A stretch of DNA of 63,955 bases, counting the filler, from Hausera hauseri (taxonomy: Eukaryota), in NCBI GenBank assembly GCA_046269625.1. It is 10 parts of 10 records of this genome, joined end to end, with 100 filler letters (N's around TTAATTAATTAA, not from the genome) between each part and the next. Parts side by side here need not be neighbours in the genome. Positions count along the whole stretch, not along the records: positions 6,070 to 17,786 come from JBJURY010076659.1; 9 more parts are not named here. One strand, given 5' to 3'. A program made the translations under genes and the position numbers. Position 1 is the first letter of the stretch. Every line of letters starts with the position of its first letter. A model generated the notes under the pieces. It made no database searches and was not told where the DNA came from. It was given only the letters and a program-made list of their open reading frames with translations. Below, piece after piece: positions 2,632 through 58,339 of this stretch.

Positions 2632-3979
2632 GTAGATGTTAATTCGATATAATCACAAACAGCAGCAGAACGTGTTGATATCAGTTCGACCAACGACAGA
2701 TTCAAAATTAAAAAATTGTAGTTGAGATAAAATTCCGAGATCTCAAAGGGTTACAAATTTGAATCGAAACAATAGACTTGGAATTGTGACTAAATGGCAA
2801 ATTCATCCAAGCGGTATCAATTAAGAAAATTCATAAGTCAAAATGGTTAAAAAATTAAAAAAGTTAGATAATATTGTATTTTTTTGAATTATTAAAACAA
2901 AACAAAGTTTCACATGGATATACTGTACAGTTTTTACAATAACTCCAATTACAAAAGAACCTTTACAAATACAGCTTTATCGACATTTAAACATACTATT
3001 AAGCAGTTTAGTCAATTTCCAGGTATTCAGCATCGACCATCTTCTGATTTCATTTGCAGTTATTTATTGATGTCATGGTCGTTAGAAACGACGCTATACC
3101 AACCCAGATGGAGAAACGGATCGTGATGTTGTTACCGTTGAAGATTAAGTACTTGTAACTGTCGTATATTGCCTGTCTCAATATTGATATAAAACGCCGA
3201 ACTACAAAATTCTGGATTCTTAATGGACGACTTGACGATTGCATCTGACAATGTCAGCTCATTCTATTGCGACACTACCGGACCTGAGAAATTGATCTAT
3301 CAAGTCACCCGGTATTCTATCTGACTAATGTGCGGATCGAAATCGCTGGAACACGTCTGACTGGAAACAGACTGGCCGGTTCAACAGGCTAGTTCGAGCC
3401 AGAACTTCACCTTCTTACGAACAGATTAAGGCATATTCTTCATAAAGATCGCGTCGTGTTAAGTGATCGATAATTGGAACGAAAGACGAACGGTAAAAAA
3501 TACATGTATGTGCCGAAAATCGAACTGGAAAGCGAATTGTTTACCTGTTCGTTTTGTCTGTACCATGACTATGTCGGTTTCCTGTATCGATGTTTCAGTT
3601 CGAATGACGATGAAGTGGAACAGTCGGTTATGCAAAAAGATGCTCATATACAACGTGAACATCACCAGTTTATATGTGACATTAAGGGGGTTCTGTATGG
3701 GGAATCATCAATTAAACGAGCCATCGATGATGGTTGAACCGATGGTTGTAGATGACCCGACATACCGAAAGAACTTGATGACATTGAACGATGTTTGTAC
3801 GGTGACAACTCGGAGATTGCGCAAGATCATCAGATGAACATACAAAGGCCGAATGATTCGATTCAGGAAGAATACTTTTAAATCTCGACACTTTAATACA
3901 CGAATAAAAAGCTCAAACATGGGCATTTATACTTTTTACTGATGGTGTTTTTGAGATCTATAGTGTTCCTGATTTTACG

Positions 3980-4650
3980 CTATACTTCCGAACTGTGAAT
4001 TTCTTTGACTGTCCACATAGAATTATCATTAAAGTAAATCTCAGTTTGTAGATTATGCAACCCTTTGATAGTACCGGCATAATAACATTTTTTGTTTCTC
4101 CATCTTGCATACACTTTAATATCATTATCAATATTGGGTTCTTCTGAGATTGTTTCGTTCTTTTCGTCATTGCTATCTTCTAGTACCGTTATTCCGCTTT
4201 TCAGATTTACATGTGAAATTGATTTACTGACAGATGACATGGAACTGAAAGATGTTCGTTTGTCAGATAATGAACTAGCCGTCGCACTAAAGCTGAAACG
4301 TTCATTCTTGCTCTTAGATGTATTGTTATATGAACATATTTGTGTCGAAGGGGTATTATTTTTGGTGTCTCTAGTCAATACTGTGATTTCTTTTGGTGAC
4401 AAATTTATCGCCGCTGCTGATTCATTGTAATTTGTCATTCCTGTATTTGGATAAATAGTAAATGTTTGATTGGTAACAATAGGTGTCGTTGGCTGTGTAT
4501 TTAGTGGTGTTGAATGAATATTTGAACTGAAACTGGATACATTTTGCATTTGATGTGTGCTCATTTGGTAAACCGGTGGAAGAAATGTATTATTTTCGAC
4601 GTTCGCTGGTTCAACTTCAAATGTTTTAAATGAACTTATCGTAACTTCTT
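3980..4650 (-). pseudogene. Host gene fragment: Ser/Thr-rich region followed by a Tudor-like domain
   Basis: KVYARWRNKKCYYAGTIKG...EIYFND fits the Tudor consensus (V.A.W...yY.G.I...V.F.D; 53BP1/LBR/PHF20 type). The 5' end abuts the LTR of copy A2. Confidence 0.5.
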
Positions 4651-4654
4651 TTGC

Positions 4655-5969
4655 GGCTGCAACGGACGCCCGGCCGTCTCCAACCAAATGGGCCAGAGGC
4701 CGCCCGCCGCTGTTGGCACCACATGAACCCCCGTGGCAAAGTGAAAACTATGAAGAAGAAAATAGATGAAAAGCAACAATCGCTAAACAAAACAGTGTAT
4801 ATATCAGTTGGTCTTAGTGTGGACAAGACGTTGGGTGTCTTCGAGTGATTTTTCTCTGCTATACTTGCTAAATGTGACTCTGCGTGTTTTGTCTTTGCGC
4901 GCTGTGTTTGCTTGCAGAGTTTGAATTTGGGGAAAAAATTGTCGGATTTTGTTGAGTGTTGTGTCGTGCAAAAATGAGTCAGAATAATGAGAAGGAGGAG
5001 GTGAAGGAGGAAGAGAGATTGTTGAAGACGAAGAAATGATTAAAGGTGTAGTTGCAGATAAAGGAAAAGAGAAAGAAGTTGGAGTGGAAGTTGGAATTGA
5101 ATTGGGTGAAAGAGTGGAAGTGGAAAATCAAACAGACGTAGTGGTAGAGAGAGGAAGAGAGATAGGGATAGAGGTAAAGAGAGGAGAAAGCTGTGAAGCG
5201 GAAGTGAAAGGAGTAAAAGATGATGTGTGAGGATAAATGGGGGAAGAAAGCGCGAAGATGAGGAAGGTGTAGAAAGAAAAGGAGAGAGAGAAAAAACGGC
5301 GAAAAGGTACAAGGCGAAAAAGAGCGAGAAGATGGAGAAGGCAAAGAAAAGTAGTTGGAGGGATGTATGCAAGAGGTTGGTATGATGAAAGGTGTAGAAG
5401 GAGAGATTGGTGAAATCAAAATTGTGTTTGATGGAGGAGGCATTGTAAGAGGAGAAAGCATGTTGTTATAAGGGGATGGAGGAGGTGTTGAAAGGCTTGA
5501 ATGTGCAAAATTTGACGGGGCGAAAAAGGCTGAATTGTGTGAAGAAATTGAAGTGGAAGTTTTGGGAGAAAACGTAGGGGAAAGTGGATTAGGACATTAA
5601 GCAGAGATGGAAGGTGAATTTTTGGATCGCTGCGTGTCGTACAAACATGTTGATAGAGAAGTGACTTCGATGGGAGACGTATCGTCGATGAAGAAGGCCG
5701 AATTAGCGTTGTTGATGTGAACAGTTACTTCTTTGTCGTTTTTGAGAATGATGATGTTGTGTGAGTGTAAGCGAATTACTTTGTAAGGGCCGACATACTG
5801 AGGTTATAACCACACGGCGTCTGATTCTTTAGCCATATGAACTTGGCAGTATATAAATCGTCGGGTATGTAAGGTTTATTTGCGTGTAACAGTCTGCAAA
5901 ATGAGTCTTTGCTGATCTCAACGAAGTGTCTCTGTGCCGCTTGTATGGTTTCGTCTGTAGGAGTATTGT
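4655..5969 (-). mobile_element. Gypsy copy A2 (integrase end, pyrimidine-rich tail, PPT, start of 3' LTR)
   Basis: The reverse complement of 4846-5969 matches about 1540-2631. It continues to CTTTGCCACGGGGG (PPT-like, 4728-4732) then TGTGGTGCC at 4723, paralleling CTTTGCCACGGGGGAGGGG-TAA-TGTTGTGCC in copy B1. Confidence 0.9.
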
Positions 5970-6069: not shown

Positions 6070-6900
6070 CTATTTTCTGGATAATAAGTTTGTAATTGTA
6101 CACTTGGTTTATTAGGTCGTACTTCGTATAAGTCAAATTTTCTTTTAAACTCTTGGTTCATGAGCAGTTTGCAACAGGGGTGTTGTACACCTGCACGAAT
6201 AGAACAATATCCTATTTTCGGGGTTTGTCCCATAGTTGCTTCGAAGGTGATACTAATTTCTCGACTGATAGTTAACTCTGTACGGGCATTTACTTGGATG
6301 CATTTTCTTGCCTTATTAACCGAAATTCTCTGGATATTTTCTTCCAATAACTTTATATTCGGGTCAGTGATGGTAGAATGTCGGTAGGTTTTATTCCATG
6401 GTGTCTGTTCCATGAAGTAACGACTAACTGAGATTGTGGTTTTATTTCAATATAAATTTCGAATGATTCTTGTAAGTACAAGCGATAGGTAAGGTTATAA
6501 GTACGTCCAAAATCTATGTCGCAACACTATATATGATCGCTAGGTTCAAAATCACAATTTTTTGCTTCTTTCATTGTTATATCATTCAAAACAATTTGAA
6601 ATCTTCCGAAGTCGTGGTGTGGTTTCCAAGTCTTAAATCCAACACATACGGCATTTGGTAAGTAGTAATAAATCGTCTTTAATTGCAATAATTTAGTATC
6701 TTCTTGCCTTTGCATGTCTTCGACTGTCGGTTTCTTTTCCGTATTAATCGGTTCCGATTTTGTTCCACCCTTCCGAATTCCATATATGTTTCCTAGCGTA
6801 GATTCGTCGTGCCACCATTGGGTTTGTGTTCTCGGAATATAAGAAGCAATTAACGATAATGCTAAAACTATCTGAACGTATGATATTGGACTAGCGACTA
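6070..6900 (-). pseudogene. Post-integrase extension: signal-like hydrophobic segment plus two 4-Cys ectodomain units (truncated by contig end)
   Basis: In frame after the integrase C-terminus: VQIVLALSLIASYIP, then C..CDF..CCDIDFG and KC..YCS..CC..FDLY; homologous to 51021-52790. Confidence 0.75.
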
Positions 6901-9900
6901 TTGAGGAAGTTTTTCTCTTGCGTTGGCGTAGGTTATAATGTTTATTGGGCCGTATTTCTGTCTTAACAACTCTTTGTACTGATATGACTTCCTCCTTTCC
7001 GTTCTTGTTGACATATACTGTGGTTGGCGTAGCTCTGGTAACTTCGTACGGTCCTCTCCCGGTGCGGGTCAATTTCAGTGAGGTGCCTTTTCTGGCTACT
7101 GGATAGTGTACATAAACCCAATTTCCTGGTTCCAAATAATGTGGTATCGCTTTCTTGTCGTATTGCTTTTTAAATTGCTCTTGATATTCTTGAGGTAATT
7201 CTTTAGCGATCTCCCAACATTTTTGTAATTGTATCTGCAATACTTCTGCAAAGTTCTGTTCTAAATCTTCGAGACTGGCTGCGTACGGCGTCATTCATAA
7301 ATCCGTGGGCAACACAGCTTCATGTCCGCACATCACAAAAAATGGTGTAAATCCTGTTGCTGGATGTGGTGTGGTATTGATGGCAAATTGAGTCCCCTCA
7401 AGAAATTCGTCCCAATATTTTTGGTCTTTAGCTACCACCGTCGATAGTATACGTAGTACGTTTGAATTCATTCGTTCTGTCATTCCGTTACACTGAGGAT
7501 GGTACGCGGTAGTTAATAGTCGTTCGATTTCGAATATCTTGGTAATCTTCTCGAAGAGTTCACTGGTAAAATTCCGTCCTCGATACGTTAATATCTGGTC
7601 TGGTGGTGCATATCGACAAATAATCCTTTTTACTACTGCCTCGGCTAAAGTTTCTGCCTTTTGGTCGATTAGCGCTACTAATTCGACGAAATGAGTTAAT
7701 CGCTCAATACAAGTTAAGATATATTTATTGTTCTTGTGGGCCGTAGGAAGATGTCCTACGATATCCATTGACATGGCTTGCATAGGCCTATCTGGCACAT
7801 TGTTTTCGGTTCGGCCATGTAATTTTTCGTCTTCTTTTGTTTAGTTGCACACACATTACAAGCATTTACCCAATTCTTTACATCAATATAGATACTAGGC
7901 CAAAAGTATTTATTCATTATTCTTTCTAATGTCTTCTTCCATGACATGTGTCCAGCTAAATATGAATCATGTTCTGACATCAACACTTCGGTTCGTAAAC
8001 TTTTTGGGATAACTATCAGTTTCTTTTCTTTTCGTTCGTAATATAAGATATCCCCATTGCTGTTGTCATTCAATACGCAATATTTATGTCCATGTCTATG
8101 TAAATGTTTTTATAACGGTCGCACTTTTGGCATAATATCTTTTTCAGCAAATTCTATAATCTGCTGAATAACTTTATTCTTTCTTTGTTCCGTCGAAATT
8201 TTAATTGGTTCATCCTTCGTTAGGGCGCGTTGGCGATCTATTATTTTTTCAAGTTGACTTTTCATTATTACCATGATTTCACTGGTTTTAGTCTTCAGTC
8301 TCCATAGTGCATCGGAATCTACATGCTTGTTCCTTGGTTTATACTGGAATTCTATATTGTATTTCGATATTTTTTCAATCCACCTGTACAGTCTGCATGT
8401 CAGGTTATTTGCTCAACCCTTCAAAGTCGTAACGGCCTTGTGATCGGTGACAATTATAATTTTCTGCCCGTATACGTAAACATTAAAATGTCGAAGTGCT
8501 TCTTTTACGGCTAAAGTTTCCAATTCGGTAACAGAATAATTTTTCTAAGCCTTCTTCAAAGAACGTCCTCCATATGCAATCGGGTGTTCTAACTATTCGG
8601 CCTCTCCTTTCTTTGCTAGTTCATATCCAATGCCTTCTTTACTGGCATCTGTCTTTATTATAAAGGGTAAGTTAAAGTCTGGATAACGTAAGACAGGTTC
8701 ACTTGTTAATATCCTCCATCTCATCGAAGGCTTTCTGTTTGACGTCCGTCCATTTCCATTTAATCCCTTTTTTAAGTAGACGATATAAAGGTGCATTAAT
8801 TTTTGAAATATCTGGCACATAGGTCGCGTAATATTCGCAGAGTACTAACCAGTGTTTTAGCTCCTTCTGGTTTTGTGGTTCCATGCAATCAAATATTTTG
8901 TTTAATACTGATTTATCTGGTTTCGATCTCCCTTCTCCAACTATATGGCCAAGATAGGGTACTGCATTCTGATCCCATTTGCATTTCTTCGGATTTAGTT
9001 TCAATCCGGCTTATTCTAAACGCATCAATGTATGTTTAGTGTCCTTTAAGTGTTCTTCTTCGGTCCTTGACGCTATCATTACGTCATCTAAGTACGCAAA
9101 AGCATGATCCAGTCCCATTAACATTTTATTCATCATTCTTGTGAATTTCGCTGGCCCGGTAGTAATACCGAACGGCATGACGTTAAATTCGTAAACATCA
9201 TCGTGAGTTTTGAATGGTGCTTATAACGGTCTTCGTCTTCAATCTCTACTTGCCAATATCCTGATTGTAAATCCAGAGTAGTAAACCATTTTGCTTCTGA
9301 GAGTCGGTCTAGAGCCTCTTTTACTGATGGTAATGGAAAAGAATCTTTCATCATGAGGTTATTTAAAGCTCTGTAATCAATGCAAAATCGATGTTTTGTG
9401 GTACCTTTCTTCTTAACCATGAGAAATGGTGAGTACCACAATCTATAACTAGGCCTAATTATATTGGCCTTGAGCATTCGTTTGACTTCTTTTGTTATCT
9501 CAGGTCTCAGCAAGTGAGGTAACCATTTTGGCATTTTCTGGTCCTCCAAATCTGCTTCCTCGTTTGACCCCGGCTTTTTTCATGAGTGGAATAGTCAGTT
9601 TTAACGCTTTCGCTCTACCAATATCTTCCTCGTCCTTAGCAATAATCGATTTATATCGGCATAGTAATTCATAAAACCGACAATAATATTCAGGTGAAAA
9701 CTTAGTTTCGACATGAGGTGGAAATTCGGCATATTTATAAGGTTTTTCTTCAATAGTTATTGACGGTACTCTATAGGTATTCCATAGAGTGGTATAAGCA
9801 TGAAGCCTGACGGGGATCTGTGCTTTATTAGCTATTCTGATCGGCACCCGACCAGAGTGTACTCTTGTTAGTATATTGCTGAGTATTATATTTGGATCTA

Positions 9901-10410
9901 ATGTATCCTTTGGTTCAAAATCTACCGGTTGATCGTTATCTTGCTGTACTTGGACATAAATTATCATTTCTGTCCTTGGTGGCATGTCTTCGTCCAAAGG
10001 TATCCACATCTCTTTAAATTTTCTTTCTTTGGCGTTTTTTATACCTTTATTTAGTCCGATTTTTACCAGCTTCCCCGTTTGTAAGTCGATCAATATATTC
10101 GGTAGTCTTTTCAGTAAATCACATCCTAGGACGATGTCGTCGGTTAATTGTTTCATAATTGCAAATTCATAACGAAAATTTTGTCGCACTATTTGGACTT
10201 CTGGGTTAATTTAAACATCGGTTTCGACATTTGACCAAAAGCTCCCGTACTTCCTGGAACTTTTGTGGATGGTGGGTATAATTGTCCTCTTAACGATTGT
10301 GGTATCGATTTATTTTTAATGTAAGACATTTCGGACCCTGTATCGATTAAGGCATAAACTTTCCAATCTTTATTGATGATTTTGGCGAAGGGTCTGCCTT
10401 CTATTACTGT
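6900..10410 (-). pseudogene. pol: Pol polyprotein PR-RT-RNaseH-IN of the giant element
   Basis: ALIDTGS (D at 10342-10344); RFCIDYRALN, LDLQSGYWQ, YLDD (9083-9094); TDASKEGIG, TDHK; HDSYLAGH...CNVC, MDIVG, AYHPQCNGMTERMN, GPYEV. Confidence 0.95.
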
Positions 10411-10456
10411 TCCGAAACAGTTTTATGCTACTTTTGGGCGTTTAGTCACCGATATT

Positions 10457-12861
10457 TTATGTCCATTGATTCGGATTTCTGGGGAGGATACTATGTTCTG
10501 CGTTTGGATATAGTTCATTGTTTTCGATGTTTAATTCTTCCGTTTCATGAGTACTGATTAATGGTTCTCGGTTGTTAGTGTGTAGTTCGGTATTCTGGAA
10601 GGTTTTTGTCCGTGGATTTTCCCAGACAGATGATTTGGTCTCTATATTTCGGGCCTCTCTCGGAGAATACAACATCCTGGGATCATCCACTGGCTGTCGG
10701 TAATACATTTTCTGTAGGACCCCGTAGCGTTTTGTGCATTCATACGGGTCTTTTATATTAATTGTCCTTTTACAGACTTCCGTGTGGTATGAACGTATGG
10801 ATCGTTTGTCACAGTCCTCATGGAATGGAGTGGTAGGAGGTAACATAGGCAATGTCGTTTTAATGACAGAGTTTGTCTTATATCTGTTTATTCTGGAAGG
10901 TACTTCTCCTCCCTTAGGCTCGTCATCGTCTGAATTATTTCTCCGCGTATTAGGTTTTGTAAATTTCCGCTTGTACAAGAACATAGGCCTTCCTTTTCGT
11001 TTACGATTATAATAACCAACATGGCGTTCTACATCCGATTTCCATCTACTTTCTTCGTATGCCTTTAAGAATTTTCCAAAGGGCGTTATGATTGCAGTCA
11101 GTATTTTACATGAAAATCCGGTCAATGTAAATATTTCATAACCATTTATTACGGCTTGAATAACGGCCTTAATCATTTGTATCATAAAATATATTGCTAA
11201 AAATCCGGATATTGCTTGTCCGAAAATCAAAAATCTTCTGTGGTTACTCGTTGATAATGGTTTACGTCGAGTAAAGATTCCCATTTAGCTTGATATCGGG
11301 TATCTTCTACTACAGAGGCCATGAGTCGATTTAATTCATGTGTCTGCTGTCGCCGGAAAGCGAGAAATTGTCGAAAGGCTTTAATTTCCTTGGGTTTATA
11401 TATGCCTTTCGACGAGGTGTCCTGAAATTTATCGTCTGTAATTCCTCTCGCAAGAGTTGTTCCGGTTAATTTATTTGGAGCGGCAGTGATACCTCCATTC
11501 GGCAAACTAACCCAGCATGTTTTACTACGTCAAAACATGGGCTCTCCTAAGCTTGTTTTACAATCTCTAAGGATGGTTGATTGGATTGCATTATCCAATA
11601 ACACTCTCGTCAATTGCGTAGCTAACCTTGGAGTATTTTGACAAATAACAGGGAGTTCCTGAATGTAACGTTTTTCTTCCACATTGATGGGTACATCTCT
11701 CTTTCCACACTCGTAAGTTAACAAGACTTCGCCCGTAACTCGACCGAAAATTCCTTCTCTCATAGGGATTATTGGAGAAGCCAATTCTGGGTTGGCATAT
11801 ATAAGAGCCAATTTCGTCCTCATGATCTCGGTATCTAATTTACAGTCATGTGTTATCATTTTGTGATATAATTCCTTTATTCCGACTTGTCCTTTGTAAT
11901 AGAAGTAATCATCTCTGCTTTTCAAATAGTCCTCAATTCGGATATGCTGCGTTTCCAACTGATAGGTTTTCGCATTTATTTCAGTTTCGACTACGAAGAA
12001 CGCCTCATAGTTTGTGGCGAACATTACTATGTCACAACGGGAAGTCATTTCTTTTTTTATAAATTTCAGTTCATGCTGATCCGAGATTAATATAGTAGGT
12101 GTAGGGTGTTCCAATACGTCTTCGCGTGTCCTTGAGTTGGTATCCGATATATCCACATACCGCTTTCCCGTAGTTTCACTAAACTTGAGTTCCTTAATTT
12201 TAATAAAATTACAACTTCTTCCAGAGCGAGGTTCCCATATTATAACAGAACTTCTAAAAGCACAGATTCCGTCTTGTAAGTGACATTTCTGATTTTCGGT
12301 GTATAACTTGGTGATACTATTGAACATTACTTTCTATGGCAGCATCTCCGATTCGTAAAAATCCACGACCACTACATTTGCTTGTAATCCTTTCCCAGTG
12401 CCGTATTCTGCTCCGTAACAATGTTCTCTATGCATATCTAACCTTCCGGCCACTACCTTATACGCCCTAATTATCTTTCCTGGTTGCATTTCTAACTGCA
12501 TACTGTCCCATTGTACTCTTCCAGTCTCTTTAGCTTTTTTGCAGTATTGGCGTTCTAAATTTATTGGAATTAGCGGAGTGGTTGGCTTGATTATGGAGGA
12601 ATGTCAGTGTACTAGCCCACAGTGAATGATACTACGCGATCGCCTCAGCATGCATTCCATCCCATTAAACGATATCAATTCTTGTTTTTGGTACAGGAAG
12701 TAATTTTTCTCTCTTGTTTCCAACTTGTACGGTCTGGCATCTTTGTACGCTACCAGATCCATTAGGGAATATCTCTGCCCTAGTTTAAACTTATCGCAGT
12801 CGTAAACGATAACAGCGTTTATATGCTTTATTAGCATCACCAAGGTGAGTATGCTGATTAA
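10457..12861 (-). pseudogene. env: Chuvirus-like (Monjiviricetes-type) fusion glycoprotein / env
   Basis: Hydrophobic LISILTLVMLIKHINA, then VYDC...YSLMDL...ECMLRRSRSIIHCGLVH; CHLQDGIC..VIIWEP; ELYHKMITHDCKLD...GIFGRVTGEVLLTYEC...ELPV...TRVL; C-terminal hydrophobic FLIFGQAISGFLAIYFMIQMIK...GFSCKILTAII. Motif order matches chuviral G and its endogenous derivatives. Confidence 0.8.
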
Positions 12862-15800
12862 TTAATTTGATTTATTTTTCCAGTAGCCGACATCCGCCAT
12901 TGTTAAATTACGTAACATATCTTCAAGTTTATTACTGTCCCGCCTGTCTTCTTCCTTGTCGAACAGTCTTGACCAATTTACTTCGCAGGGCAACCTTCTT
13001 GCCGCTTTCGGTGCTAAGCTTATAGCTCTATTAATTTCATTCTCTCGATTAGGGTTTATTTTGATAGCTAAGTATAATAGTACTTTTCTCAATTCCTCGT
13101 TGGTGTTTTCCACCATAATCTTTTCGATTACCGATTCATCGGCTAAGTTACTCTTTGATAGTTTAAAGCGTGAACTTCTAATCATTCTAGCTGCTTCGAA
13201 AGTTACCTTTTCTTTATTGTCTAATACGTCACCTCGAAGGCTGGAATAATTTACTATTCGTACTAGATTCTTCATTAACTCACTTAATTCCTCATTATTT
13301 GTACTGAGAGTCGGAATCGACATATGTCTCAATTCCCTAATCAATTCTGCATTATAATCCACGTCTTCTCGCGTTTTTTAGGCCTACCAACTGGACGTTT
13401 TGGCCTTTGTCCCTTAGTGGTTGTTTCACTCAGTGGCACTAAATTTATGTCGTATTGTTCCTTGTCCTCATCCGTTTGTAAGTACTCAAAATGCATTGCA
13501 GCGTCTCGAACTCCCATACTTTGTCCTACGCATTTTTCCGTCTTGGCTTTACGTGTGACTTCTTCTTTTGTCTGTTCGTTAGCTATTATTGCTACTATCC
13601 GATTCGTTTAGTTTGGGATAATCCCAACATATATTAGTTGCTCTAGGTCATCGAGTATTCTACCTCTAAAGTAAAATCTATAATTTAACATTCTTTTTTG
13701 TCCATCCATTTGGATGATACCATTACTTTCATCGATACCTCAGGTTTAGCCTTCAAGATTTTAGCGTATTTCCTTATCAAAAGTTTCGGCACCGTGCTAT
13801 AAATTGTATTCTCACTAGATAATTTAGTTAACGTCGGAATAAGTTGTCTTAACTTACTTTCAGTAATATTTGCGTTAATTAGTTCAATTAAATCCTCTTC
13901 AGTTAGCGCTAAATCGAGATGCGTCTCCACATTGAATCTCCTGTCTTGCGGGCATGTTTCTATCTCGTTTAGTTGTACTGGGGTCATGGGTTTTTCTGTG
14001 ACCATTGCTTCTAAATATGCATCCCACTCTGGTTCATTTTCGGCTTCTGGGAGTCCATAGTCTATCAAAACTGTCTTTGCTCTTTGCACAATTTCTCTAA
14101 TTTCCTTCAATCTTGGTTGTATTTCTTTCACCTGCATAGTTCGGAAACCTATGCCGTTTCCACAGGCATACTAAATCATTTTCAGTAATTTGCCTAATTC
14201 ATTAGGATCGATGAATCCTTTTTGGTGGTAATCTGTTAATTCTATAATTACATCTCTTTGCCATCTTTGTACAAATTCTCGTTTATTTTTGATCTCTGAT
14301 TCAGTAAAAGCATATTTGTTTCGATAAACTTCGAGCTCTTTTGTTAGTTCATCTAACCTTGTTGCTCTTTGTTCTGTTTTAATACACGTTTCTTCTACTT
14401 TCTGTATCTTGGGCATCAATTGCCTCATTCTCTCATCATTAATCTCCGCCATTTATACCAATAAATAGGTTAACTCATACATCTCATTTATATCTTTTGA
14501 GTCAAGGTCCATTGCATCCGACAATTTCTTTACGAACTTATGTTCCTGAAAACTAAAATGTGGGTCGTCTCTTATTTTTGTCAACTCTGTATGGAAATTC
14601 TAATCTGATCCGGCCATCCATTCTTGTGGTTTACGCAAGAATTTTATGGCGTCTGTTAACGTGACTCAATGTTCCGTACATACGTTTAAGGTTTCAATGT
14701 CTTAGACAGAGATCTCGTCGATAGGTTTATCTGTTAAGTGTTGGACTCCTTCTAGACAAACAACCCTTAACCTTGAGTGTAAATTGTAAATCATATTCAG
14801 CTATTTTGTAAAGTCCGTCTCTTCGACCAATTTGTAGATCTCCTCCAATATCGACGCTTCTTTTTTCCTTTTCATAAATTTTAGTCGTCGTAACGCTTCG
14901 AATTGAGTACGAATGTCTATTTATATTATCATTGTGCCTTAATCATGTGCACTTTCTTCTAGAGGCTTCTTTACCATTGGCTCCTTTTGTGGGAATTCTT
15001 TTTTGCGGTCATCTACTAATTTTCTTAGTCTGACAGTTAATTTGCGATTATTGGTTTTGCTATTATAGCCCTATCTAACATCTTATATGCATCTTTTAAC
15101 TCATCGTCCGGCCCTTTTAGTTATTCCGTAATCCGGCCGACATAACTAAACTCGTCCTCATATTCTTCCAATTCTACGATACAAGCTTTTATTACGTATT
15201 GAGTTTCCTCATGGCTTGGAGACATGATTCGGTTTCTCAAACTATAGATCTGTGATCGCTTTTCATTTCCCATTTTAATTTGATACTCTAGATTCGTGTA
15301 TTGTTTGGGTACAACGAAAGCGATTTTTATCATTTCCATTAAGAAAGAAATATCTATAGGGTCTGTACCCAATATTTCTTAATCAATAATACTTCAACTG
15401 TTAACCGGTCTTTCTCTAAGCCGGTTAATCATTGCATGGCAGATTTCATCCATTATTCGCTCTAAATTACGGACTACTCTCTTCAGTTTTGGGTTTGTTT
15501 CTAAGGTGGACAGTAACGTCTTAGCCTTAGTGACTTTTACATCAACACTATATTAGTTTTTGCTCCATCCTTCCAAAAATTTGACTCCACTTTTAATCCA
15601 TGATTCTAATTCGTGCTTCCATTTTGACAGCGTTTCAGGTGATACCTCTTCAGGTTGTCCTAAGTCGATTGCTTCATCAAGTTTCTCTTCACTGCATAAT
15701 TTGAAACTTTTATATAACGTCTCAGCATACTGTTGCTCTTTTCCGGATATATCTACTTGTTCGCTTAAGCATTTCTAAATTTTTCCCTAGAATTTCTGTA

Positions 15801-16480
15801 TCATGACACCTAATTCTCATTTTCTTTAACTCATCAGCGTTTCTCCACGAACGTCGAACTTTCCACTTCTTTGAATCAAAATCGTCAATATTTATCGGTT
15901 TCTCCTCACTATTGGGAAGTGGGCAAATCTCGTTAATTTCATTAATTGACTTTGTAGATTCGTTCACCTCGATAGGTGTGAATGGACCAATCTCTGGTGT
16001 ATTTATGCTATGTTCTACGTCGCTTTCTACAACGATGTTCGTAATTTTCGTTTCTTCTATTTACTCTCTAGTTATCTGTGAGCGTGAACGACTTCTACGT
16101 TTTGTTTTTAAGGAAGGGTTACGGCATCTATTTTTCGTAATTTTAAGCATTAATGGCTCCATAAATTCTTTTTCTGCTGTATCATCATGGGTAGACTCAT
16201 TTACATTTTTAACCGTGAACTCAGGTTCCGCATCTAAGTCGACTTCTGTCGAGGTTCCTGGTTTGTCAAATACTTTATTACTTACCGGAATACCCTTTTT
16301 CCGTGTCATATCAGTCCGCTTGGGTGCTATTGCATATTAATATTCAGTTTCTGGCTCTGCTAAACCGTGATACACTTCTAGTAGTCTCAATGTATCTCCG
16401 TATTCTTTTCTAGCTATCACTTTGCTTCTAAATTTTCGTTAACTCTGATCATACTGGTCTTATTTGGCTCAATGAATGAA
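12862..16480 (-). pseudogene. Unknown charged/helical coding region between gag and env; contains an AT-hook-like motif
   Basis: A series of same-strand ORF fragments (16309, 15967, 15372, 14452, 14137, 13362) with protein-like Glu/Lys/Leu composition and coiled-coil character; KRPVGRPKKR at 13371-13400. Confidence 0.6.
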
Positions 16481-16506
16481 ACGCTACGTCGGTTTGGAAA
16501 TGACAT

Positions 16507-17520
16507 TTAAATGTGTTCTTCTTTTCCGCAAGTGAAACAAACTAAATTTCCATTCCTGCCAACTTTTTGTCGACCGTCTTCGTTCACAGGTGACTTAGGT
16601 CTACTTGTGATTCTATCATACTGATTCGGCGAACTTTGGGCACTATCTGCATTTCTTCGATTGTCGTTATTTCCATTATCATCATTGCTATTTGAATAGT
16701 TAGGGCCTTTGTAGTTTCCTCTATTCCTATCCCAGTTCAAATTCAATCTATTCATATTTCGCTCGTCAGTGTTGTTATTGCTTCGGCCATTCCTGTAACT
16801 GTTATCATTATTTCTATTCCAATAATTTTTATTACCCACAAATCATCTGTCATCCCTATCACGATTGCCATTCCGATTTCTATTTTTACGGTCATTTCAA
16901 TCATTATTTTTATCGTTCTTATCGTTATGTCTGGTATATCTATCGAGTGCCATTTCTAAGTCTTGAGCCAATTGCAGAGTTTTCTCGAAATTCGCAGGTC
17001 TGGCCAAAATCAACTGCTTAACTAAATCTTGGGACCAAATGCCATTAATTAATTGAGTGGTCATCATAAAATCCAAATCTGGCGGGGTTCTCTTTTCCGC
17101 AATATCGCGTTCTGCGTCTGTTTTAGCTTTTGCTACATTAGCTATCCTCAAGGTACTTACATAACTATTAGCGAGTTTCTTTAATGCAAATGCAAACTGA
17201 GTTACTGATTCGCCTTTCTGTTGCACTCTGTTCTGAAAAGCCATAAGTCTCTGTTGTGGCGTTACGGTCGGCAACAATTTACGATTTAATGCTCCTACCA
17301 AGGAGGACCAAGACTGCTTTTCATCATTAGTGAGCTCACCATAAGCGTCAGCGGCTACCTTTTTCAAATACAACGACAAACGTTTAATCATCACTTCAGG
17401 AGTAAGGCTAGCACCTTCTGCGTGCAATTTATAAGTTCTCAAGAATTCATTAAGCTCGTCCGGGTAACCGTCATATGCCGGCAGGTTCAGAGAATCAGAG
17501 GTAAAAATGTCCAGTTTCTG
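16507..17520 (-). pseudogene. gag: Gag (capsid-like domain, Asn/Arg/Asp-rich linker, degenerate CCHC knuckle)
   Basis: LPAYDGYPDEL...LSLYLKKVAADAY...SWSSLVGAL...RVQQKGESVTQFAFALKKLA (retrotransposon Gag, Q..GESV..F motif); knuckle CFTCGKEEH at about 16510-16540. Confidence 0.85.
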
Positions 17521-17886
17521 CGCTAATGGTAATTTATCTCTAAATTTGCTTTATTGATTTTATGCTTCTCAAGTGGGATTTTAAATTGCTTGTTTTGCTC
17601 GATGACGTCTAACTCGATTCTATTCTCCGAATTTGAACGTTTATCTAATTTTTGTGTGGCGTACGGGGGAATTATCCTTTAATACGAGGTATAGTTTTGA
17701 CTTATCAATATTTGTTCTCAATTAAATTTAACGTTATTTATCCCGTTCAATAACCTATATATCAAATTTAGTTTTTAATTCCAACTNNNNNNNNNNNNNN
17801 NNNNNNNNNNNNNNNNNNNNNNNNNNNNNNTTAATTAATTAANNNNNNNNNNNNNNNNNNNNNNNNNNNNNNNNNNNNNNNNNNNN

Positions 17887-20800
17887 ACAAAAATGTCATC
17901 TCGGGTGCCGTTTTTATACCCACATGTACCAAGTTAACAACCCTATTTGCATATACCACACAAAATTTAAGAATGAGGCGCATAGGTGTATTCCTGGTTG
18001 TACCTTTAGAAGCAGCACACAGCATACAAAAGTCGGACGTACTGTTTCACCTTCTAACAGCCGCCCAAATTTACCACTGCCAAAAAACTAATTCCGCCAC
18101 CAGTGCTTTCGGCGAGTCCTGGCGAAGGCCATTCTTCAGTTTTTACCAGCCGAAAACTTTCTTTCGCCATATTTACCGTAAAAGCAATAACTACGTTACC
18201 AACAACTCGCCACACAGATTTCATCATCGATTCAGGTGCAGCGATTTCTTTACTGCCACTTACCTTTCCAACTCAACACACCTCATTCAACAATAAACCT
18301 CTTTTTACAGCTTCCAGACAACCGCTACACGTTTCCGGTACATGCAGGCTTTCGTTTACCCTTCCGAAATTTACTTCGATATTTCACTGGGCGTTTACTG
18401 TTGCAAATGTCCAGACAGCCATTTTAGGATCAGATTTTCTTTTGCACTATAACCGCCTTTTCGATTGCAAACTACGTTGCTTAACAAGTGGTTGCAATAA
18501 GGAGCGATTCGATCACGTCCATACCATTTCGTCTGTCGTGCAGGTGATTGCAAGTCGAAAACCTATATTAAAAAAACCTTCGAACAAACCTTTTTCTTAC
18601 AATCATGGTACCTTGTTTTATAAATTACTAAAGAACAATATTACTAACGATTGGGGCTTGCACGGCGATGAGAGTGATTCCGTTACCACTGCCAAATCAT
18701 TAGATAAAACTACCAGCTACAATACCATCTTCAGTACTACCATCCTGCATCGAATACCACTTCATTTTAGATCACAAAATAATGTCCAAATTGCAACATT
18801 TACTGGTAAAAACACCTTGCTCCTACCAAACTTTTCACAATTACCTGTAAGTCTGCAGCAATTCATTAACGTATTCTGTTCTAGGATAATTAAAAAAACA
18901 GGTCTTTTACTATAGAAAATAACACTTTTCACCGCATTGTGACACAACATTAAATACGTATCCGCCAAAAAGTGCGTCCATTATCTCCTCGTCGTAGGCA
19001 AGCAGTTGAAGCCGAATTTCTCTAACTCGAACGTTCCGGCATTGTACGTCACTCCAAATACTTATTGTCGTCACCATTACATTTCGTGCAAAAGAAGGAC
19101 GGAACTTTTCTACCATCTGGCGATTATCGTCAATTGAACACTCTGACAACAATAGATGCATACCCGCTACCACTCAATAAGGATATCTTGCACCATCTTA
19201 ACAACTCTACAATTTATTCTACCATTGATTTATTTAAAGCCTACCACCAAATTCCGGTGACACCTGAAGATAACAAAAAACAGCAGTAACTACTCCTTTT
19301 GGCCTTTATGAATATCTGTACATGCCTTTCGGCCTACGGAATGCCGCACAGACTTTTCAACGCCATATTGATGCTATCCTTTCTGATTTTCCATATGTTC
19401 ATCCATATATTGGTGACATATTAGTTGTTTCCTCTTTGAACCTACAACACGAGGAACACCTCAGATCAATCTTTCGACGTTTACACCAACATAATCTGCA
19501 GATCAATTTCGCCAAATATCATTTTTCCAGAAATGTATAAATTTCCTTGGTCACATTATTTCTGCTGAAGGTCACTCGCCTCAGCCCGATCGAGTTGAAG
19601 CCCCAAAAAACGTGCAGCTATTTCAAAACACAACAGAAATGACAAGCTTTTGGGGAACTTTGCACTTCGTTCACAGGTATGTGCCGTACTGCTTTGACCT
19701 TACCGCACCATTTGCACACTTAAGCGGCGGCAAAAAACATCAGCCAATCCAGTGGACAACCGAACTGGTTGATAAGTTTTATAAGCTACGCGAAGGAATT
19801 AAGACCGTCGACATTCTCGCTTTTCCTAAGCCTGATGCGGAACTCATCCTTACTGCAGACGCTTCAACCACTGCGGTAGGTGCTGTACTTCACCAAATCC
19901 ACAAATGAGAAATCAATTGCTATAATTTTTTTCTCTTAAGCTAACAACCCTGAAACTAGATATTCAACGCTCGATCGAGAATTATTGGCCATCGTTCTCG
20001 CATTAAATCATTTCTCCCACCTACTTGTCGCTTGCCATTTTACCTTCCAGACTGATCACAAGCCCTTGATAAACATCATGGTTATGAAACATCCTTCCTC
20101 ACGCCAAGAACGACAGATATCATATTTTTCGACATTTAACTTTGACAGAAAGCATTAACGGGGTTAATAATTTGGTTGCCGATTTCTTATCTAGGACGGT
20201 TGGTTCGATTAATTTTTCACCAATCTTCACTCAAGTACAACTTCAACAGAAGCAGCCACCTCAGGACATGTTTAATTTTTTACGTCTTGCACAATTGTTG
20301 ACGGCATGGCTTTAGACACTTCCAAACCAGGTCATTCCATTATAATTCTTGCCCCACCTTTACAACGGCAAGCGTTTAACAGTGTACATTCACTACACCA
20401 CCCTGGCGCTAAAGCCACTTTTCGTTTACTCCATCGACAAGTAGTTTGGCAGTCAATGCGTTCCGATGTGCAAACCTGGGTTAAGGAATGTGTGGCCTAC
20501 TAAAAATACAAAACAACTATGCATTTAAAGCCACAAGTATTCCACGTCCCCTGGCCATCGCGTTTTGAATCCGTGAATATCGACATCTTCGGCCGTTTTC
20601 CTCCGGACAACAGTCATCAATTCATTCTCACCACGATCGAACGTTCCTCGCAATAGCCAGAAGCCATCCCTCTGAGGAGCACAAATACCGACACCGTTGC
20701 TGACGTTTTTATTAGCACATGGATTAGCAGATTTGGATCACCTCGTTTCATCATCACGGACCAGGGTCAACAGTGTGAATCCAACCTGTTCAAATCCATT

Positions 20801-22018
20801 GTTAACTGACTGGGGGTCCAGCACATACATACTACGCCTTATAACCCCCAATCGAATGGCCTTCTAGAACGTTTCCACCGAACATTGAAAACGTCACTAA
20901 GAATCCTTGCAGAGTCAAACACTAGTTGGACGAATCTTCTTCCGTTTGTTTTGCTTGGTTGGCGGAACACTCCGTCTACTTCTACTGGCTGTTCACCCAC
21001 TGAAGCCTTATTGGGTGTTCCTGTACGGTCATTATTCAAACTTACTGCCCTTGACGACACCTCTACAGATGGAACGATACGGGCAGCGCAAAATTACTTT
21101 GATACGATCAGTAAAGATTCGTTCTGCAGGTTATTTCACAAAGACAAAACATATTTATCTGAAGATTTGTAATCGGCAAAATTCGTCTGGCTAAAAAATC
21201 AGGCGCCGTGCGGTTTTCAACCACGGTATTTGGGGCTTTACAAACTCGTACAATTGCACTCCCATAATGCCGTTATTTCTAAAAACGGTAAGGAATTATC
21301 GGTACATATCAATAACGTCAAGCCTGCCTTTTCGTAGACGATACCCCAAAATTGAATCTTCTAGCTTCTTTTTGACTTTTTCGCATTTTCCCCTTGCAGT
21401 TCCCACAACTCCTGCACCGCCTTCCGTTCCGACCCCTATTCCTACTCTTTTATAAGAACCTACCATTAAAATCCCTTTTCCTAACCTTATAATTTGTCCT
21501 TCTTTTTCCCCTGAATCTCCTTCTCCAGCTCCTTCTTTGTCCTTGAACGACACCCCACCTTACACCACGACATCCGATATTTCTTTACCTCAATCAACTC
21601 ATCAACCATATTCAATGACATTGAAAAATCGCAAATTCGTGGCATTTAGTACTTATAGTAAGGAAATTAACACTGCAGGAGTTCAACGTTTTATTCATAC
21701 GAAGACCACCTAGACAGCCTGCTTCTTTTCGACACATTTTCTACTTTCTTGCCCTCTAGTTTTTGCTTTGCCACGGGGGAGGGGTAATGTTGTGCCCAAC
21801 AAGGACCTGTAAATACACTGTTATTGTTTTCTCATTTGTTGCCATTTGTCTTTGTTTATTTGTCTTCGCAGTTGCCGAAAGGTTGGTGCACTTTTGTCAT
21901 TTTATCACATCGTGCGCGGATTTGGTTAGGTCTAATCTATTCAATTCGGTATTTACTAACATCTACGTACCTGCCAGACATTATGGATTTATTCAAATCA
22001 GTCACGTTTTTAGAAACA
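17887..22018 (+). mobile_element. Gypsy conventional family, copy B1 (gag end, PR, RT, RNase H, IN, PPT, 3' LTR), decayed
   Basis: FIIDSGA protease; GDYRQLN, IDLFKAYHQIP, MPFGLRNAAQTFQR, YIGD (degenerate YIDD); ADASTTAVGA; integrase motifs; PPT GGGGGAGGGG at 21775-21784. Confidence 0.93.
21788..22018 (+). repeat. Putative 3' LTR of copy B1 (about 231 bp)
   Basis: Starts TGTT three bases after the PPT; candidate end AACA at 22015-22018 gives inverted termini. The right boundary is inferred. Confidence 0.55.
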
Positions 22019-22854
22019 GTTAATACGGAATCCACATATACCAATGTAATTATTTCTAATGAAGTACAGAAACTTAGGGACATAAGAGAAAGTTTGTAAA
22101 ACAAATGGAATAATTATATAAAATTAATATTCTTAATAGTTGGATGTGTTGTTAGTTGGATGTTCCAAAGTCAATATTCTGTTCTATCTATTCCAAAAAA
22201 TTGAGGTTTATCCGTTGTCTGTGAAACGTTATGACGACCAGAAAGTCATAGTGTCGTCGAGTTTGAGCAAATGTAATTCCCATATAAGAATTTCTCTATA
22301 CGCGGACTATTTGATGGTATTATTCATTTCGGTCATTTATGGAACATAATCAAAATATCTTATTCCAGTCATTAAATTTGTGTTTTTCAGAAATCGATAA
22401 ATAGGGAATGTTTAGAAGTAATTCGGCGAAAGAATTTTACTTCTTTACGGTTAAGTTGATTACGTTACATGTTTGGAAATTTTATTGACAAGAAAATGAT
22501 AAATTATTATTGAAGTTCTGAAGTTTGAAGTAACCAATATGTTATTGTTTGCTCTTAAGTCTTTTACATTATGTGGTAATGGAATTATTTAAAATTTCTG
22601 ACTCAACACAGAAACTATGGTGTCAGAAACATTACTTATCAATGCTGATTTATCAAACAGACGTTATTGACAATACAGTTGAACAAAGTATTACAGAAAA
22701 TCAATCAATTACTCAGAATGCCTCTCATTTGGGAACGAGTTTTTCACGAAAACTGTTTCAATGTCAATTCGTTCCCCTCAGTCCTAACAGCGTCAATGCA
22801 ACAACGAATGAATCATTTCAATTACCGAAAACTATTTTACAATGTAGTACAAGC

Positions 22855-24726
22855 GAAATGCATCAATTGAATTTAGTATCAAAGGCTCATCATTTTATCA
22901 ACAAGCATGAGTCATTTATTCTTCAAAATCAGTGCAAGTTTCGCTCTGCTCAAGAGTCTTTTGTTAATGGTAATTCATCGGTTTATTTGGAAGAAATGTA
23001 CAATTCTTGGTTAGAAAATCCATCAAGTATTCATAAATCATGGGATGTTTATTTCCGACAAGTAAACAAAGGTGCCGGAATCGGTTAGGCATACATTGCG
23101 CCTCCGAACATTGTTTATGACAGACCATCAATTTTGAAAGTTGCTCCAATCACTGCCTATGGCAACTACAAAAGGTGTTTCGTTGGTCGATGCAGTTAAT
23201 GAGAATTCAATTGAAGATCATTTGGCTGTGCAGGCTATTATTAGATCATATCAAATTCGAGGACATTTCGCTGCTTTGAATGATCCATTGGGAATTGATA
23301 TTATTCACGATTAACCAAAAAATATAGTCTATGCTAATATTTGTAAAACTGTTGGTAAACCCCATTTGGATAAGGTCTTTCGTTTACCAAAAACAACACA
23401 TCGGTGGAGAAGAGAACGAACTAACACAGAGAAATTATTCATCGATTAGAAAACGCATATTGCCGACATATTGGCGTTGAATATTTTATTAATGATCTCA
23501 GCGAATGTGATTGGATATGAAACAAGTTTAACACCTCGTATTTTAAAATTCACCGATGATGAAAACGACTCACGTTGGTCCGATTAATTCGTTCAACGTG
23601 ATTTGAAGATTATTTGGCTAAAAAGTGGAGCTCCGAGAAACGTTTTGGACTTGACGGTTGTGAAGTTTTGATACTAGTAATAAAAACGGTTATTGATACA
23701 TCCAGCGACTTAAGTGTTGAAAGTTTTAATATTGGAATGCCACATAGAGAGCGGTTAAATGTGTTAGCAAATATATGTCGTAAGCCATTGGAGCAGATAT
23801 TTTGTCAATTCGATTCAATTTTAGAGCCAAACGATGAAGGAAGTGGTGATGTCAAATATCATTTGGGAATGTATCATAAAAGAATAAATAGATTAAATAA
23901 CAAAATGATCAAAGTTCCAATAGTAGCTAATACTAGTCATTTGGAAGCCGTGGATCCAGTTTTAGCAGAAAAGTCGTATGCCGAACAATACTATAGTAAA
24001 GACAAAGATGGAAAGAAAGTGCTTACTATTGTTCTTCATGGTGATGTTGCTTTTGCATGCCACGGAGTTGTTTTCAAAACGTTTCATTTGAGTGATTTAC
24101 CGAGCTATACAACTCACGGCACGATACACAGTCGTTAATAATCAAATTTGATTCACAACTTATCCTCCAGTGACTCGTTCATCGTCGTATTGCACTGATG
24201 TGGCGAGGGTTGTAAATGCATCAATATTCCATGTGAATGCCAATGATCCTGAAGCAGTTTTAAATAATATATCGGGAAAATTGTTAGTTTTCCACCGGAT
24301 AATTTCAGTTTGCATTCTGGGTTGAAACGAACTTTGAAGGAACGTGAACAGTTAGTTTAAGACAGAATGGCACATTGGGCCCTTGGGGAGGCTTTTGCAT
24401 TTGGAAGTTTGTTGAAAAATTGTATCCATGTGAGACGCAGTGGACAAGATGTTGAAGGAGGAACGTTCTCTCATAGGCAGTGTAGTGCATGATCAGGATC
24501 GTGATCTTGTTGTACATGTTCCCCTTAACAATCTTCATTCTGGACAAGTTGAATTCTCCGTTAGCGATTCGTCTTTTAGTGAATATGCTCTATTAGGTTT
24601 TGAACCCGGGTTTTCTCAAACCGACTCGAATGCCTTAGTTTGTTGGGAACCTCAATTTGGAAAATTTTTCAAACAATGTCCAATGTGTAATTGATCAATT
24701 TGTTGCATCAAGACAGTCGAAATGGT
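22855..24726 (+). pseudogene. OGDH: Mitochondrial 2-oxoglutarate dehydrogenase E1 pseudogene, intronless, internally deleted, 3' truncated
   Basis: [31 protein letters not shown]; [17 protein letters not shown]; [15 protein letters not shown]; [10 protein letters not shown]; SHLEAVDPV; LHGD; after [11 protein letters not shown] it jumps to [40 protein letters not shown]. Many stops and frameshifts. Confidence 0.93.
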
Positions 24727-25189
24727 CAATCAGGGTCATTCTGCTCCGTTTTGACGGTGTTGCATGCCAGAAATCACAAGGGCCATCTACGGTCTTTACA
24801 GACCCTCATCTGCTGTGCCCGTTGGAGAAACTGATACACGATGGGGTGAGATTTGTCATTGTGCACTATCCGTCTGGCAACCATTTTTTTAATTTGCTTA
24901 TTAGCGATTCATATTTCCTGTTTTCCTCATATGTTTTTGTTCTTAACATGTCCGCCGTTGACACAACGTCACCTCTTTTAAACTTAGACCTCCGTTGCGG
25001 TTGCCATTTACGACCCATTTACTTCGATATTTCAGATTTTTGTTCATATACGTGCAACAAAACTTGAGTTCCGAGTACATCATAGCTTGACCGACTGCCC
25101 AACCATCTGTCCAATGTCAGTGGGTCTTACACTACGGTCCGTTGCGCCACCCTAGAGCCACCATCGACTCTTTCCTTTTTATTCTTCCT

Positions 25190-37585: not shown

Positions 37586-39380
37586 CCTTGAAGGGAAAGA
37601 ATTTTAGAACAAAGGAACAGACACGAAAATAATAGGCAATTATATCTGCGGACAACAATTAATGCTCATGTCATACCTGGTTCTTCTTCTTGTTTGGGTT
37701 CGGACAGGTCCACTGTGATCCCGATGCTCTTGGCAAGTCAAGAAGCTTCCATTTTAGTGTCCGGTCTATGTGTTTCCCGGCGGTTTGAGTGCGCGTGAGA
37801 CATGGGATCGAGTACTGGCCGTCATCGATATAACGCCAATGCCCCATGCAACAGTCTAGGCGTTTCTGAGCAATGATCTGAGCCTTGTCATTCAGTAGGA
37901 TAGGGGAAATCAGGATAAGCGGCCAACGGAAACATCCCCCTGCTCGAGTGCATGTTGAGTCGGCAGAGCCTTGTCTGTTCCGAAATGAAAACACTAAGAG
38001 CCCACGACTGCACAACCGTGAAGGTAGGATTGTCTTAACTGACACACCTGGAACTTTCAGCCATTACTCACCTCAGACGTTTTTTAACTCTTTATTCATT
38101 TATGACACGAGACTAATGTAAAGTGTTGTATAGTTAATGTTTGTTGTCTTTCATTTTCCTTCCAGGTTTTCACACTAATGGTTTATTATTGTTGTTGTTG
38201 TTGTTCGATGTCCACATCATCGAGCGTCAACTCTTCTGGATGCCCAAGAAGGGCTATTGCAGTCCTAAGAACGACTATGGAGGAGGGTTGTTAAGCTTTC
38301 GTTCTGTCCCGGTGGTGTCTAAGGTGGACCAAGANNNNNNNNNNNNNNNNNNNNNNNNNNNNNNNNNNNNNNNNNNNNTTAATTAATTAANNNNNNNNNN
38401 NNNNNNNNNNNNNNNNNNNNNNNNNNNNNNNNNNTTCTCACCCCGTGATTATGTGCTCTCCTACCATTGGCCACTTTTCCTTATCCCGATGACGTGTTCT
38501 CCTCCCATTGGCTTACTTCCTTCCCTGGCGAGGAAGGGGGTTTGGCTCGTAGTCCTCACTTCCACCTACTAACATGAACTCCAATGTGATTTAGAAGTTG
38601 AAGAAAACATTAGCAAAATTTAATCCAAAACGCTAGAAAGTTTAGCAGCAAAAACAAATAATTATTAAATATCAAATACTTGCACAGACAAATATTAGTG
38701 TTAAATAAATTTTCATTAAATGTTTAGAAAATACAGAATTGTGAAATTGTCAAATAGAATAGTCTGATGTATTGCTGGACTATTTGCTTAATTTTGAAGA
38801 ATTAGTTAAAAATTTATGATGATAATAACTAGTGAGCAAATCGATCCAATATGATTTTAGGAACGCGTAGTTGAAATTTGGAGGAAAACTCTGAATAAAC
38901 AGCCAAATTGAATGAATCTGAAATTTTGTCGATGGAGTAAACTGAGCAACTTTGACACAGTTTCGAGAATTTTGGTATTAGGGAAATCTGAATTAAATCT
39001 CAATTGCAACCATGATTTGGACTGTCTAAATTTTGTAACGCACGCACGCTTTCGAAAATGCGTGAAATAAAGGGGCACCTGGACCGAAATTTGTATCTGA
39101 AAAGAGATTAAACAAAAATGCCTGAATGTTTGTGGCCAAATATGAAATACTACTACAAAACTTAGGAATAACAAAAACGTTTCGAATTTTCAATTGGTAA
39201 ACTGCGAATTACTGTGGTCGTTCGTAACTTTCTTCAAGAAAAATGATTTAAATCGTAGTACAAATTTTGGATAATATCTGTTCACTTTGGATCATATCTG
39301 TTCACTATCACTGCTAATGATACTTGAAAAGAACGATGTCTGATTCTGAGTATTGCGAGTGTATTAAAACACCAGGTTTC

Positions 39381-50915: not shown

Positions 50916-50925
50916 ACTTACTCTG

Positions 50926-58330: not shown

Positions 58331-58339
58331 ATGTTTAAA

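Follow-up and report, generated by a model that had tools for sequence, protein, structure and literature searches.

A decayed, Burro-like gag-env-pol Ty3/gypsy element with a class III-type fusion glycoprotein in the Hausera hauseri assembly

A stretch of 63,955 nucleotides from the Hausera hauseri assembly GCA_046269625.1 (hereafter the window) consists of ten contigs joined by N-linker spacers. One of these contigs, at positions 6070–17786, is occupied by a single minus-strand retroelement that carries a fusion glycoprotein gene (env) upstream of pol. The element is best explained, with a probability of about 0.82, as a decayed, many-copy, Burro-like gag-env-pol Ty3/gypsy element, likely of a flatworm, whose intact relatives encode, in one frame, Gag, cargo, an Env of the herpesvirus glycoprotein B (gB) type, Pol and also a second membrane protein; the product would be threaded through the endoplasmic reticulum (ER) membrane and processed in the manner of a viral polyprotein. 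This explanation is carried by the domain order, the fold class of Env, the single frame of the relatives and a sense codon at position 12862 in most sister copies. An earlier reading made without database searches (the sequence-only reading) had described the glycoprotein as part of a polyprotein. The feature is real and was rightly read in this way, but it is one more broken member of the published Burro-like gag-env-pol kind.

The element runs from gag (17550–16500) through a region termed X (~16400–12865), the signal and env (12861–11230), and the transmembrane segment (TM) and tail (11236–10457) to protease, reverse transcriptase (RT)-RNase H, integrase (to ~6970) and a second signal with its ectodomain. 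The internal region is at least 11.7 kb long. Its features are as follows.

16897–17550, minus: gag capsid region (weak Retrotrans_gag match, E 0.029)
16507–16842, minus: nucleocapsid region with a stop-interrupted zinc knuckle (weak zf-CCHC match, E 0.06; matches the knuckle of relative L003)
12865–16400, minus: region X, decayed, ~1,170 codons between Gag and Env, with sister contigs in every bin
13572–13915, minus: helical plus ubiquitin-like module, split by a frameshift, found with a profile from relatives
12862–12864, minus: in-frame stop TAA at the X/Env-signal junction, absent from most sister copies
12814–12861, minus: internal signal-like peptide of Env (predicted cut right before VIVYDC; helix 2–15 in the model)
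11242–12813, minus: class III fusion ectodomain as judged by PF24664, the AlphaFold2 model and Foldseek matches to gB
11150–11236, minus: Env transmembrane anchor (PF24664 TM piece), in a frame different from the ectodomain, with the break near 11240
10457–11150, minus: cytoplasmic linker from Env TM to protease, terminated by a stop after the frame break
10246–10398, minus: aspartic protease (DTG at 10344–10336; RVP, E 0.003)
8338–9531, minus: RT and RNase H, frameshifted (RVT_1, E 9.5e-11; RT_RNaseH_2, E 3.9e-9)
6971–8109, minus: integrase with H2C2 finger, core and GPY region (Integrase_H2C2, E 4.5e-20; rve, E 2e-12)
6830–6886, minus: a further internal signal-like peptide, continuing the integrase frame
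6070–6830, minus: second ectodomain, broken and cut off by the contig end (two stretches of 147 and 99 aa with 33% and 29% identity, respectively, to a related element, copy B)

Envelope glycoprotein and Pol

Read with X at its three internal stops (12604–12606, 12334–12336 and 11530–11532, minus), the env product of 12861–11230 on the minus strand matched Pfam PF24664 (Monjiviricetes fusion) over residues 3–541 with an E value of 2.6e-38, far beyond chance. The motifs from which the sequence-only reading had called a fusion glycoprotein (YDC...C...CG..H, LY...C.L and GEV...C...ELPV) were all found in a single minus-strand frame, with YDC at amino acids 20–22, C70, HCG..H at 80–85, the LY...CxL helix and GEV...C...ELPV, and the cysteines were conserved in the homologue alignment. 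The C-terminal hydrophobic block was likewise present, its piece matching PF24664 profile positions 543–601 when scored separately (E 2.3e-11). However, a frameshift within env near 11240 puts the block and the tail in a different frame from the ectodomain. A hydrophobic segment matching the Env signal also precedes YDC in relatives.

Searched as a single sequence, env gave 0 matches in the PDB and nothing in a word-index homologue search, and none of its 97 pattern matches among viral contigs was related. A profile of 105 homologues reached herpesvirus gB in the PDB (E 4e-4). The AlphaFold2 model built on the 105-homologue alignment had a mean predicted local distance difference test (pLDDT) score of 88.7 and a long helix at 309–356. 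A Foldseek search with this model, the check proposed earlier against class III fusogens, returned herpesvirus gB from E 6.9e-14 with TM-scores of ~0.43; 100 PDB matches had E ≤ 0.001, and all among those listed were herpesvirus gB. By predicted fold and profile, Env is assigned to the class III (gB/chuvirus G-type) fusogens, upstream of pol as had been claimed.

The RT was nearest to the Ty3 RT among solved structures (PDB search, E 2.9e-22), followed by a caulimovirus-type enzyme (E 2.2e-21) and by retroviral RTs at E 1e-12 or weaker, in a comparison where no BEL/Pao RT is expected among the PDB entries. On the order protease-RT-RNase H-integrase (PR-RT-RH-IN), the H2C2 integrase and the closeness of the RT to Ty3, pol is classified as Ty3/gypsy (Metaviridae), in agreement with the Gypsy lineage suggested earlier. 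The gag region was 27%–32% identical to Gag of the relatives L002, L003, P0008 and P0014 (E to 1.5e-18). No direct repeats of ≥ 40 nt that could represent long terminal repeats (LTRs) were found in contig 6070–17786, which ends inside the coding region, or in the relatives L001, L002 and L005.

Reading frame across the two junctions

The copy in the window is dead: 9 stops were counted in the 1,927 codons of the element aligned to an intact relative, in addition to several frame changes. At the first junction, the sequence-only reading had noted a signal-like peptide without a convincing upstream start, in frame with an upstream open reading frame (ORF) and separated from it by a single TAA. 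Both observations hold. The stop at 12862–12864 is preceded by a stop-to-stop frame at 13377–12862, and the sole in-frame ATG between this stop and the predicted cleavage site is located within the hydrophobic core, 8 residues short of the cut. At the second junction, the description of the tail was correct in part. The distance from its stop (10457–10459) to the D codon of the protease (10344) is 113 nt, and its frame is shared with the pol piece at 10210–9500, but the DTG is in another frame. A hydrophobic-YP motif at 10513 lies 56 codons before the DTG and out of frame with it, whereas in 8 of 12 relatives the motif is found 32–56 residues before the DTG and in frame. This difference indicates a frame break between ~10500 and ~10425.

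Relatives were collected with phmmer against 1.84 billion representatives; the best 150 of the 338 matches were used. At the top of the list (E to 9e-68) were long retroelement polyproteins that have env at the corresponding position. In a FastTree phylogeny of 125 of 151 env sequences (26 were left out as too short), the window env fell within a clade of 17, i.e. with 16 relatives (support 1.0), that leaves out the chuvirus G P0037, the BEL/Pao-type DUF5641-env protein P0035 and the integrase-env protein P0099. A metagenome scan for related loci added five (L001–L005), of which L004 was decayed and uninformative. The env start was present in 12 of the 16 clade relatives, and in all 12 the signal was located ~120 to 1,340 residues inside the ORF; in six of these 12, that ORF also encoded a Gag knuckle or capsid. 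Among the 13 of 16 that reached the TM, 11 continued in frame into the protease (one by motif only). Two loci, L002 (3,703 aa) and L005 (2,693 aa), kept a single frame all the way from capsid to the final hydrophobic segment, with the order Gag-X-signal-Env-TM-protease-RT-RNaseH-integrase, and L001 was open for 3,426 aa from the contig start.

Sister copies gave a similar picture. In total, 39,228 sister contigs, mostly < 95% alike, aligned to the element and covered all 30 bins. The 12862 stop, whose presence in other copies the sequence-only reading had proposed to check, was replaced by a sense codon in ~90% of the summed sister-copy depth (242/268; 16 contigs), and an internal env stop was replaced in 6,491 of 6,543 depth units (58 contigs). 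The element is an old family with many copies, and region X belongs to it. Together, the uninterrupted L002 and L005 and the in-frame relatives at both junctions support the proposed polyprotein, i.e. a putative single Gag-X-Env-Pol precursor.

Region X contained no Pfam family above the cut-off. Its helical and ubiquitin-like module was recovered by the relatives' profile in two pieces, at 22.0 bits (E 3e-6) and 11.5 bits, against a best shuffled score of 9.4, and the same module in L002 and L003 scored as ubiquitin (E 8e-4 and 3e-3). The match to ubiquitin-like cargo before env is weak but above shuffles. Weak Pfam Bcl-2 matches were found in the relatives P0006 and L003.

The relatives had several further features. 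P0152, at 4,844 aa, combines several protease domains with ankyrin repeats and a zinc finger, and more than one aspartic-protease-like domain was also present in each of the polyproteins P0007, P0002 and L001. Six DTG motifs, two of them beyond integrase, were counted in P0152, and additional internal hydrophobic segments lay between the proteases of P0152 and L001. An ORF for an RNase T-type (DEDD) exonuclease followed the polyprotein in L002 (12085–13473, E 1.1e-3) and L001 (10617–12107, E 1.4e-5), and an exonuclease-like stretch was seen by eye upstream of env in P0012. P0004 (HBK71150.1), a full element polyprotein, is filed as a hypothetical protein of a Flavobacteriaceae metagenome-assembled genome and is likely animal DNA in a bacterial bin.

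A second membrane protein behind integrase

Behind the integrase, the frame continues into a second signal-like peptide and an ectodomain that is better preserved in a related element elsewhere in the window.

51021–52790, minus: copy B, a single open frame that takes in the integrase end, a signal peptide, three predicted beta-sandwich domains, the TM and the tail

Copy B has a Thr-rich stretch before the TM (~51182–51090) and a short tail. The integrases of the element and copy B were 81% identical, and the second proteins ~30% identical. All seven relatives that extend past the integrase GPY motif had a signal-like segment followed further on by a hydrophobic anchor, least clearly P0012. 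A clade profile built from seven segments of five relatives, with no window sequence in it, matched copy B at 51488–51306 with 26.5 bits (E 1.7e-7); the best of 3,210 shuffled chunks scored 6.1 bits. This large difference from the shuffled control suggests that the second domain was inherited in the clade. A C..L.P..Y motif was common to four of the five second ectodomains examined, and a C-terminal T-x-V, which we take to be a PDZ-type ending, was present in three of the seven relatives (P0152, L001 and L002); copy B ends otherwise.

The second ectodomain is likely fibronectin type III (FN3)-like, as judged from a model with three domains of ~7 strands each (pLDDT 45). Foldseek of this model gave tandem FN3 arrays as top matches (E 3e-5), VIA gave a best Z of 7.1, and Atlas gave fn3 at 0.81 and 0.83, scores that count as leads only. 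No Pfam match, FN3 included, was obtained for the second protein, a profile search of the PDB with the second ectodomain gave only E 0.2–1.5, and a word-index homologue search, covering lengths of 239–763 only, found nothing. A post-integrase FN3-like membrane protein was not found in the searched literature, where figures or Repbase entries could still label it.

Three further frames (260, 276 and 152 aa) follow the polyprotein stop of copy B (48729–51020, minus), and a CxxC motif lies where the contig ends. These frames, which match no Pfam family, are possibly accessory ORFs.

The topology of the polyprotein (signal, stop-transfer, signal, stop-transfer) is inferred from standard ER translocation. 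Gag-X would be synthesised in the cytosol, after which the internal signal would insert and signal peptidase would release the Env N-terminus in the lumen. The Env TM would act as a stop-transfer segment, leaving protease, RT-RNase H and integrase on the cytosolic side, still attached to the Env tail; cleavage by the element protease would then detach Gag and Pol from the membrane. The second internal signal after integrase would place the FN3-like ectodomain in the lumen, with the last TM as its anchor and a second N-terminus made by signal peptidase. The products would be 1:1, and Gag and Pol would start membrane-bound beside both surface proteins, which might couple capsid assembly to envelopment.

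Host, competing explanations and known elements

The host is likely a flatworm. In a FastTree phylogeny with 36 reference proteins chosen from 120 listed, the OGDH copy in the window grouped with Macrostomum and neodermatan flatworms (support 0.945), on a long branch. This copy (22534–24900) and a kinesin copy (58284–59213), both on the plus strand, are decayed and apparently intron-poor.

Several observations weigh against the proposed reading. L003, otherwise open for ~1,400 codons, has a lone stop (L003:3058–3060) at the X/signal junction, which could reflect chance, error or readthrough. P0006 and P0017 end 30–45 residues past the TM, and a programmed frameshift may operate at the tail/protease junction. 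Six short fragments (P0021, P0022, P0024, P0029, P0038 and P0114) have as their first residue a Met located within the signal or immediately behind it; these are uninformative, yet a true start may lie there. The relatives are partly dependent, as P0005 and P0152 form one cluster and several loci resemble listed proteins, and the sister-copy contigs come from one sequencing run, possibly the window's own source. A Bcl-2-like domain was not detected before env, the best score of 2.0 bits (13149–13027) being below shuffled scores. The flatworm placement is a weak one that depends on one long-branch, pseudogene-like sequence, and the FN3 call is a lead from the pLDDT-45 model and the Atlas scores.

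The lone stop in L003 would also fit regulated expression, in which a single RNA serves for both Env and Pol, by readthrough at the X/signal junction and/or by a programmed frameshift before the protease, with Gag in excess rather than 1:1. Retroelements commonly down-regulate Pol by readthrough or frameshift, and the tail and protease are out of frame here, with no indel at that place among the best-supported sister-copy rows listed. However, most of the depth of sister copies reads as a sense codon at 12862, and 12 of 12 and 11 of 13 relatives, respectively, are in frame at the two junctions. Breaks at the junctions are also to be expected because this copy is riddled with stops and frame changes. 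Regulated expression is improbable. Far less probable, and already disfavoured, is that a chuvirus glycoprotein fragment (an endogenous viral element) was inserted by chance into a Gypsy copy or captured recently by the lineage. The PF24664 match and the sole named chuvirus G among the matches listed, Hardyhead chuvirus G (P0037, E 2.4e-14), are compatible with such an origin, and chuvirus fossils in arthropods often lie near Gypsy fragments, according to the available text of PMC10084718. In contrast, the best env matches are retroelement polyproteins in which env has the same position, separated with full support from P0037, P0035 and P0099, and env is covered by sister contigs like the rest of the element. 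The independent capture from a chuvirus proposed by the sequence-only reading likewise gained no support: env belongs to its own clade of polyprotein envs and is ~23% identical to the named chuvirus G.

Within the gag-env-pol polyprotein reading, the function of the second protein allows two interpretations. It may act apart from entry in the producing cell, as a receptor decoy, an immune modulator or a junction-docking protein, like the Bcl-2-, ubiquitin- and ankyrin-like cargo. Its fast divergence relative to the integrase, structural neighbours that include cytokine receptors and adhesion molecules, and the T-x-V ending in some relatives are consistent with such a role, and vesicular stomatitis virus (VSV) G and GP64 fuse without a partner protein. 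Its fixed position, type I topology and shared C..L.P..Y motif point the other way, as do the differing ending of copy B and the forced co-synthesis with Env, which fits a particle component. A role apart from entry is thus quite conceivable, at somewhat below even odds. In the main reading, the second protein would instead most likely serve attachment or cell-contact targeting for the fusogen, though at odds below even. The fuller proposal of two-glycoprotein invertebrate retroviruses, in which a single polyprotein with four membrane crossings would yield a gB-type fusogen and an FN3-like protein for attachment or triggering at 1:1, with Gag and Pol born tethered, is rather unlikely. The clade anatomy may nevertheless matter, as an alternating cytosol/lumen polyprotein like those of flaviviruses or alphaviruses with a second conserved surface protein. 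An attachment factor would bear on how gB-type retroelement envelopes find target cells, and two glycoproteins would mean that an LTR element divides binding and fusion between proteins in the manner of herpesviruses or paramyxoviruses. Such elements are expressed in planarians, where the attachment-factor idea could be examined, and of all the features it is the second surface protein that still merits follow-up.

Nematode endogenous retroviruses (NERV), attributed to Sacco in 2022, are reportedly metaviruses with env before pol in a continuous gag-env-pro-pol frame and are said to be nematode-restricted. The present element shares the position of env with them and differs in its likely flatworm host. 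The layout is not new: in-frame gag-env-pol has already been published for Burro/GYPSM1 (PMC6431247), and gB-type GAG-ENV-POL for three phyla (PMC13524379). Burro/GYPSM1 is described in the available text as a giant Ty3/gypsy element of dugesiid planarians, with a 4,873-aa ORF in which an in-frame env separates gag from pol, ubiquitin-like, BCL2-like and ankyrin cargo, an Env matching mononegavirus fusion glycoproteins, PR-RT-RH-IN after env, and very many copies, decayed ones included (PMC6431247). The present element resembles it in combining Gag, ubiquitin-like cargo, in-frame env and pol in one polyprotein (in the relatives and, at the first junction, in sister copies, this copy being broken), and close relatives carry Bcl-2-like, ubiquitin-like and ankyrin domains as Burro does. 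It differs in its internal region (up to 25 kb in Burro), in having no detected Bcl-2, MATH, BIR or ankyrin domain in this copy and in its single protease motif, Burro being set apart by description only. The available part of the Burro text names no membrane protein after integrase (PMC6431247).

Nematodes, bryozoans and flatworms are the sources of the GAG-ENV-POL gB-type Ty3/gypsy elements, and Anakin-like glycoproteins occur in 114 gypsy elements from arthropods, as given in the accessible text of PMC13524379. Like these HSV/gB-type errantiviruses, whose hosts include planarians, Macrostomum and a polyclad, the present element has a Ty3/gypsy pol and a gB-type env before pol. In the same text, GAG, ENV and POL are treated as ORFs, and no post-integrase surface protein, 'fibronectin' or 'FN3' is mentioned (PMC13524379). 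Anakin BEL/Pao elements and chuvirus G share the glycoprotein family PF24664 with the present env, as far as their available descriptions go (PMC7642597, PMC10084718). However, Anakin has a BEL/Pao pol with env after integrase, whereas env is upstream of the protease here and occupies a separate part of the env tree, at 20%–25% identity. Membership in the BEL/Pao Anakin group was rejected on the position of env upstream of the protease and the lack of any BEL/Pao-type Pfam domain in the element pieces. In arthropods, no Gypsy capture of a chuvirus glycoprotein was found, according to the available portion of PMC10084718.

Elsewhere in the window, several copies of a separate, compact Gypsy family were observed at 1–5969, 17887–21200 and 38435–48628, in which no env was seen. 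A fragment at 26194–27362 with no Pfam match looked, by eye, to be of the DNA-polymerase-B/Polinton type.

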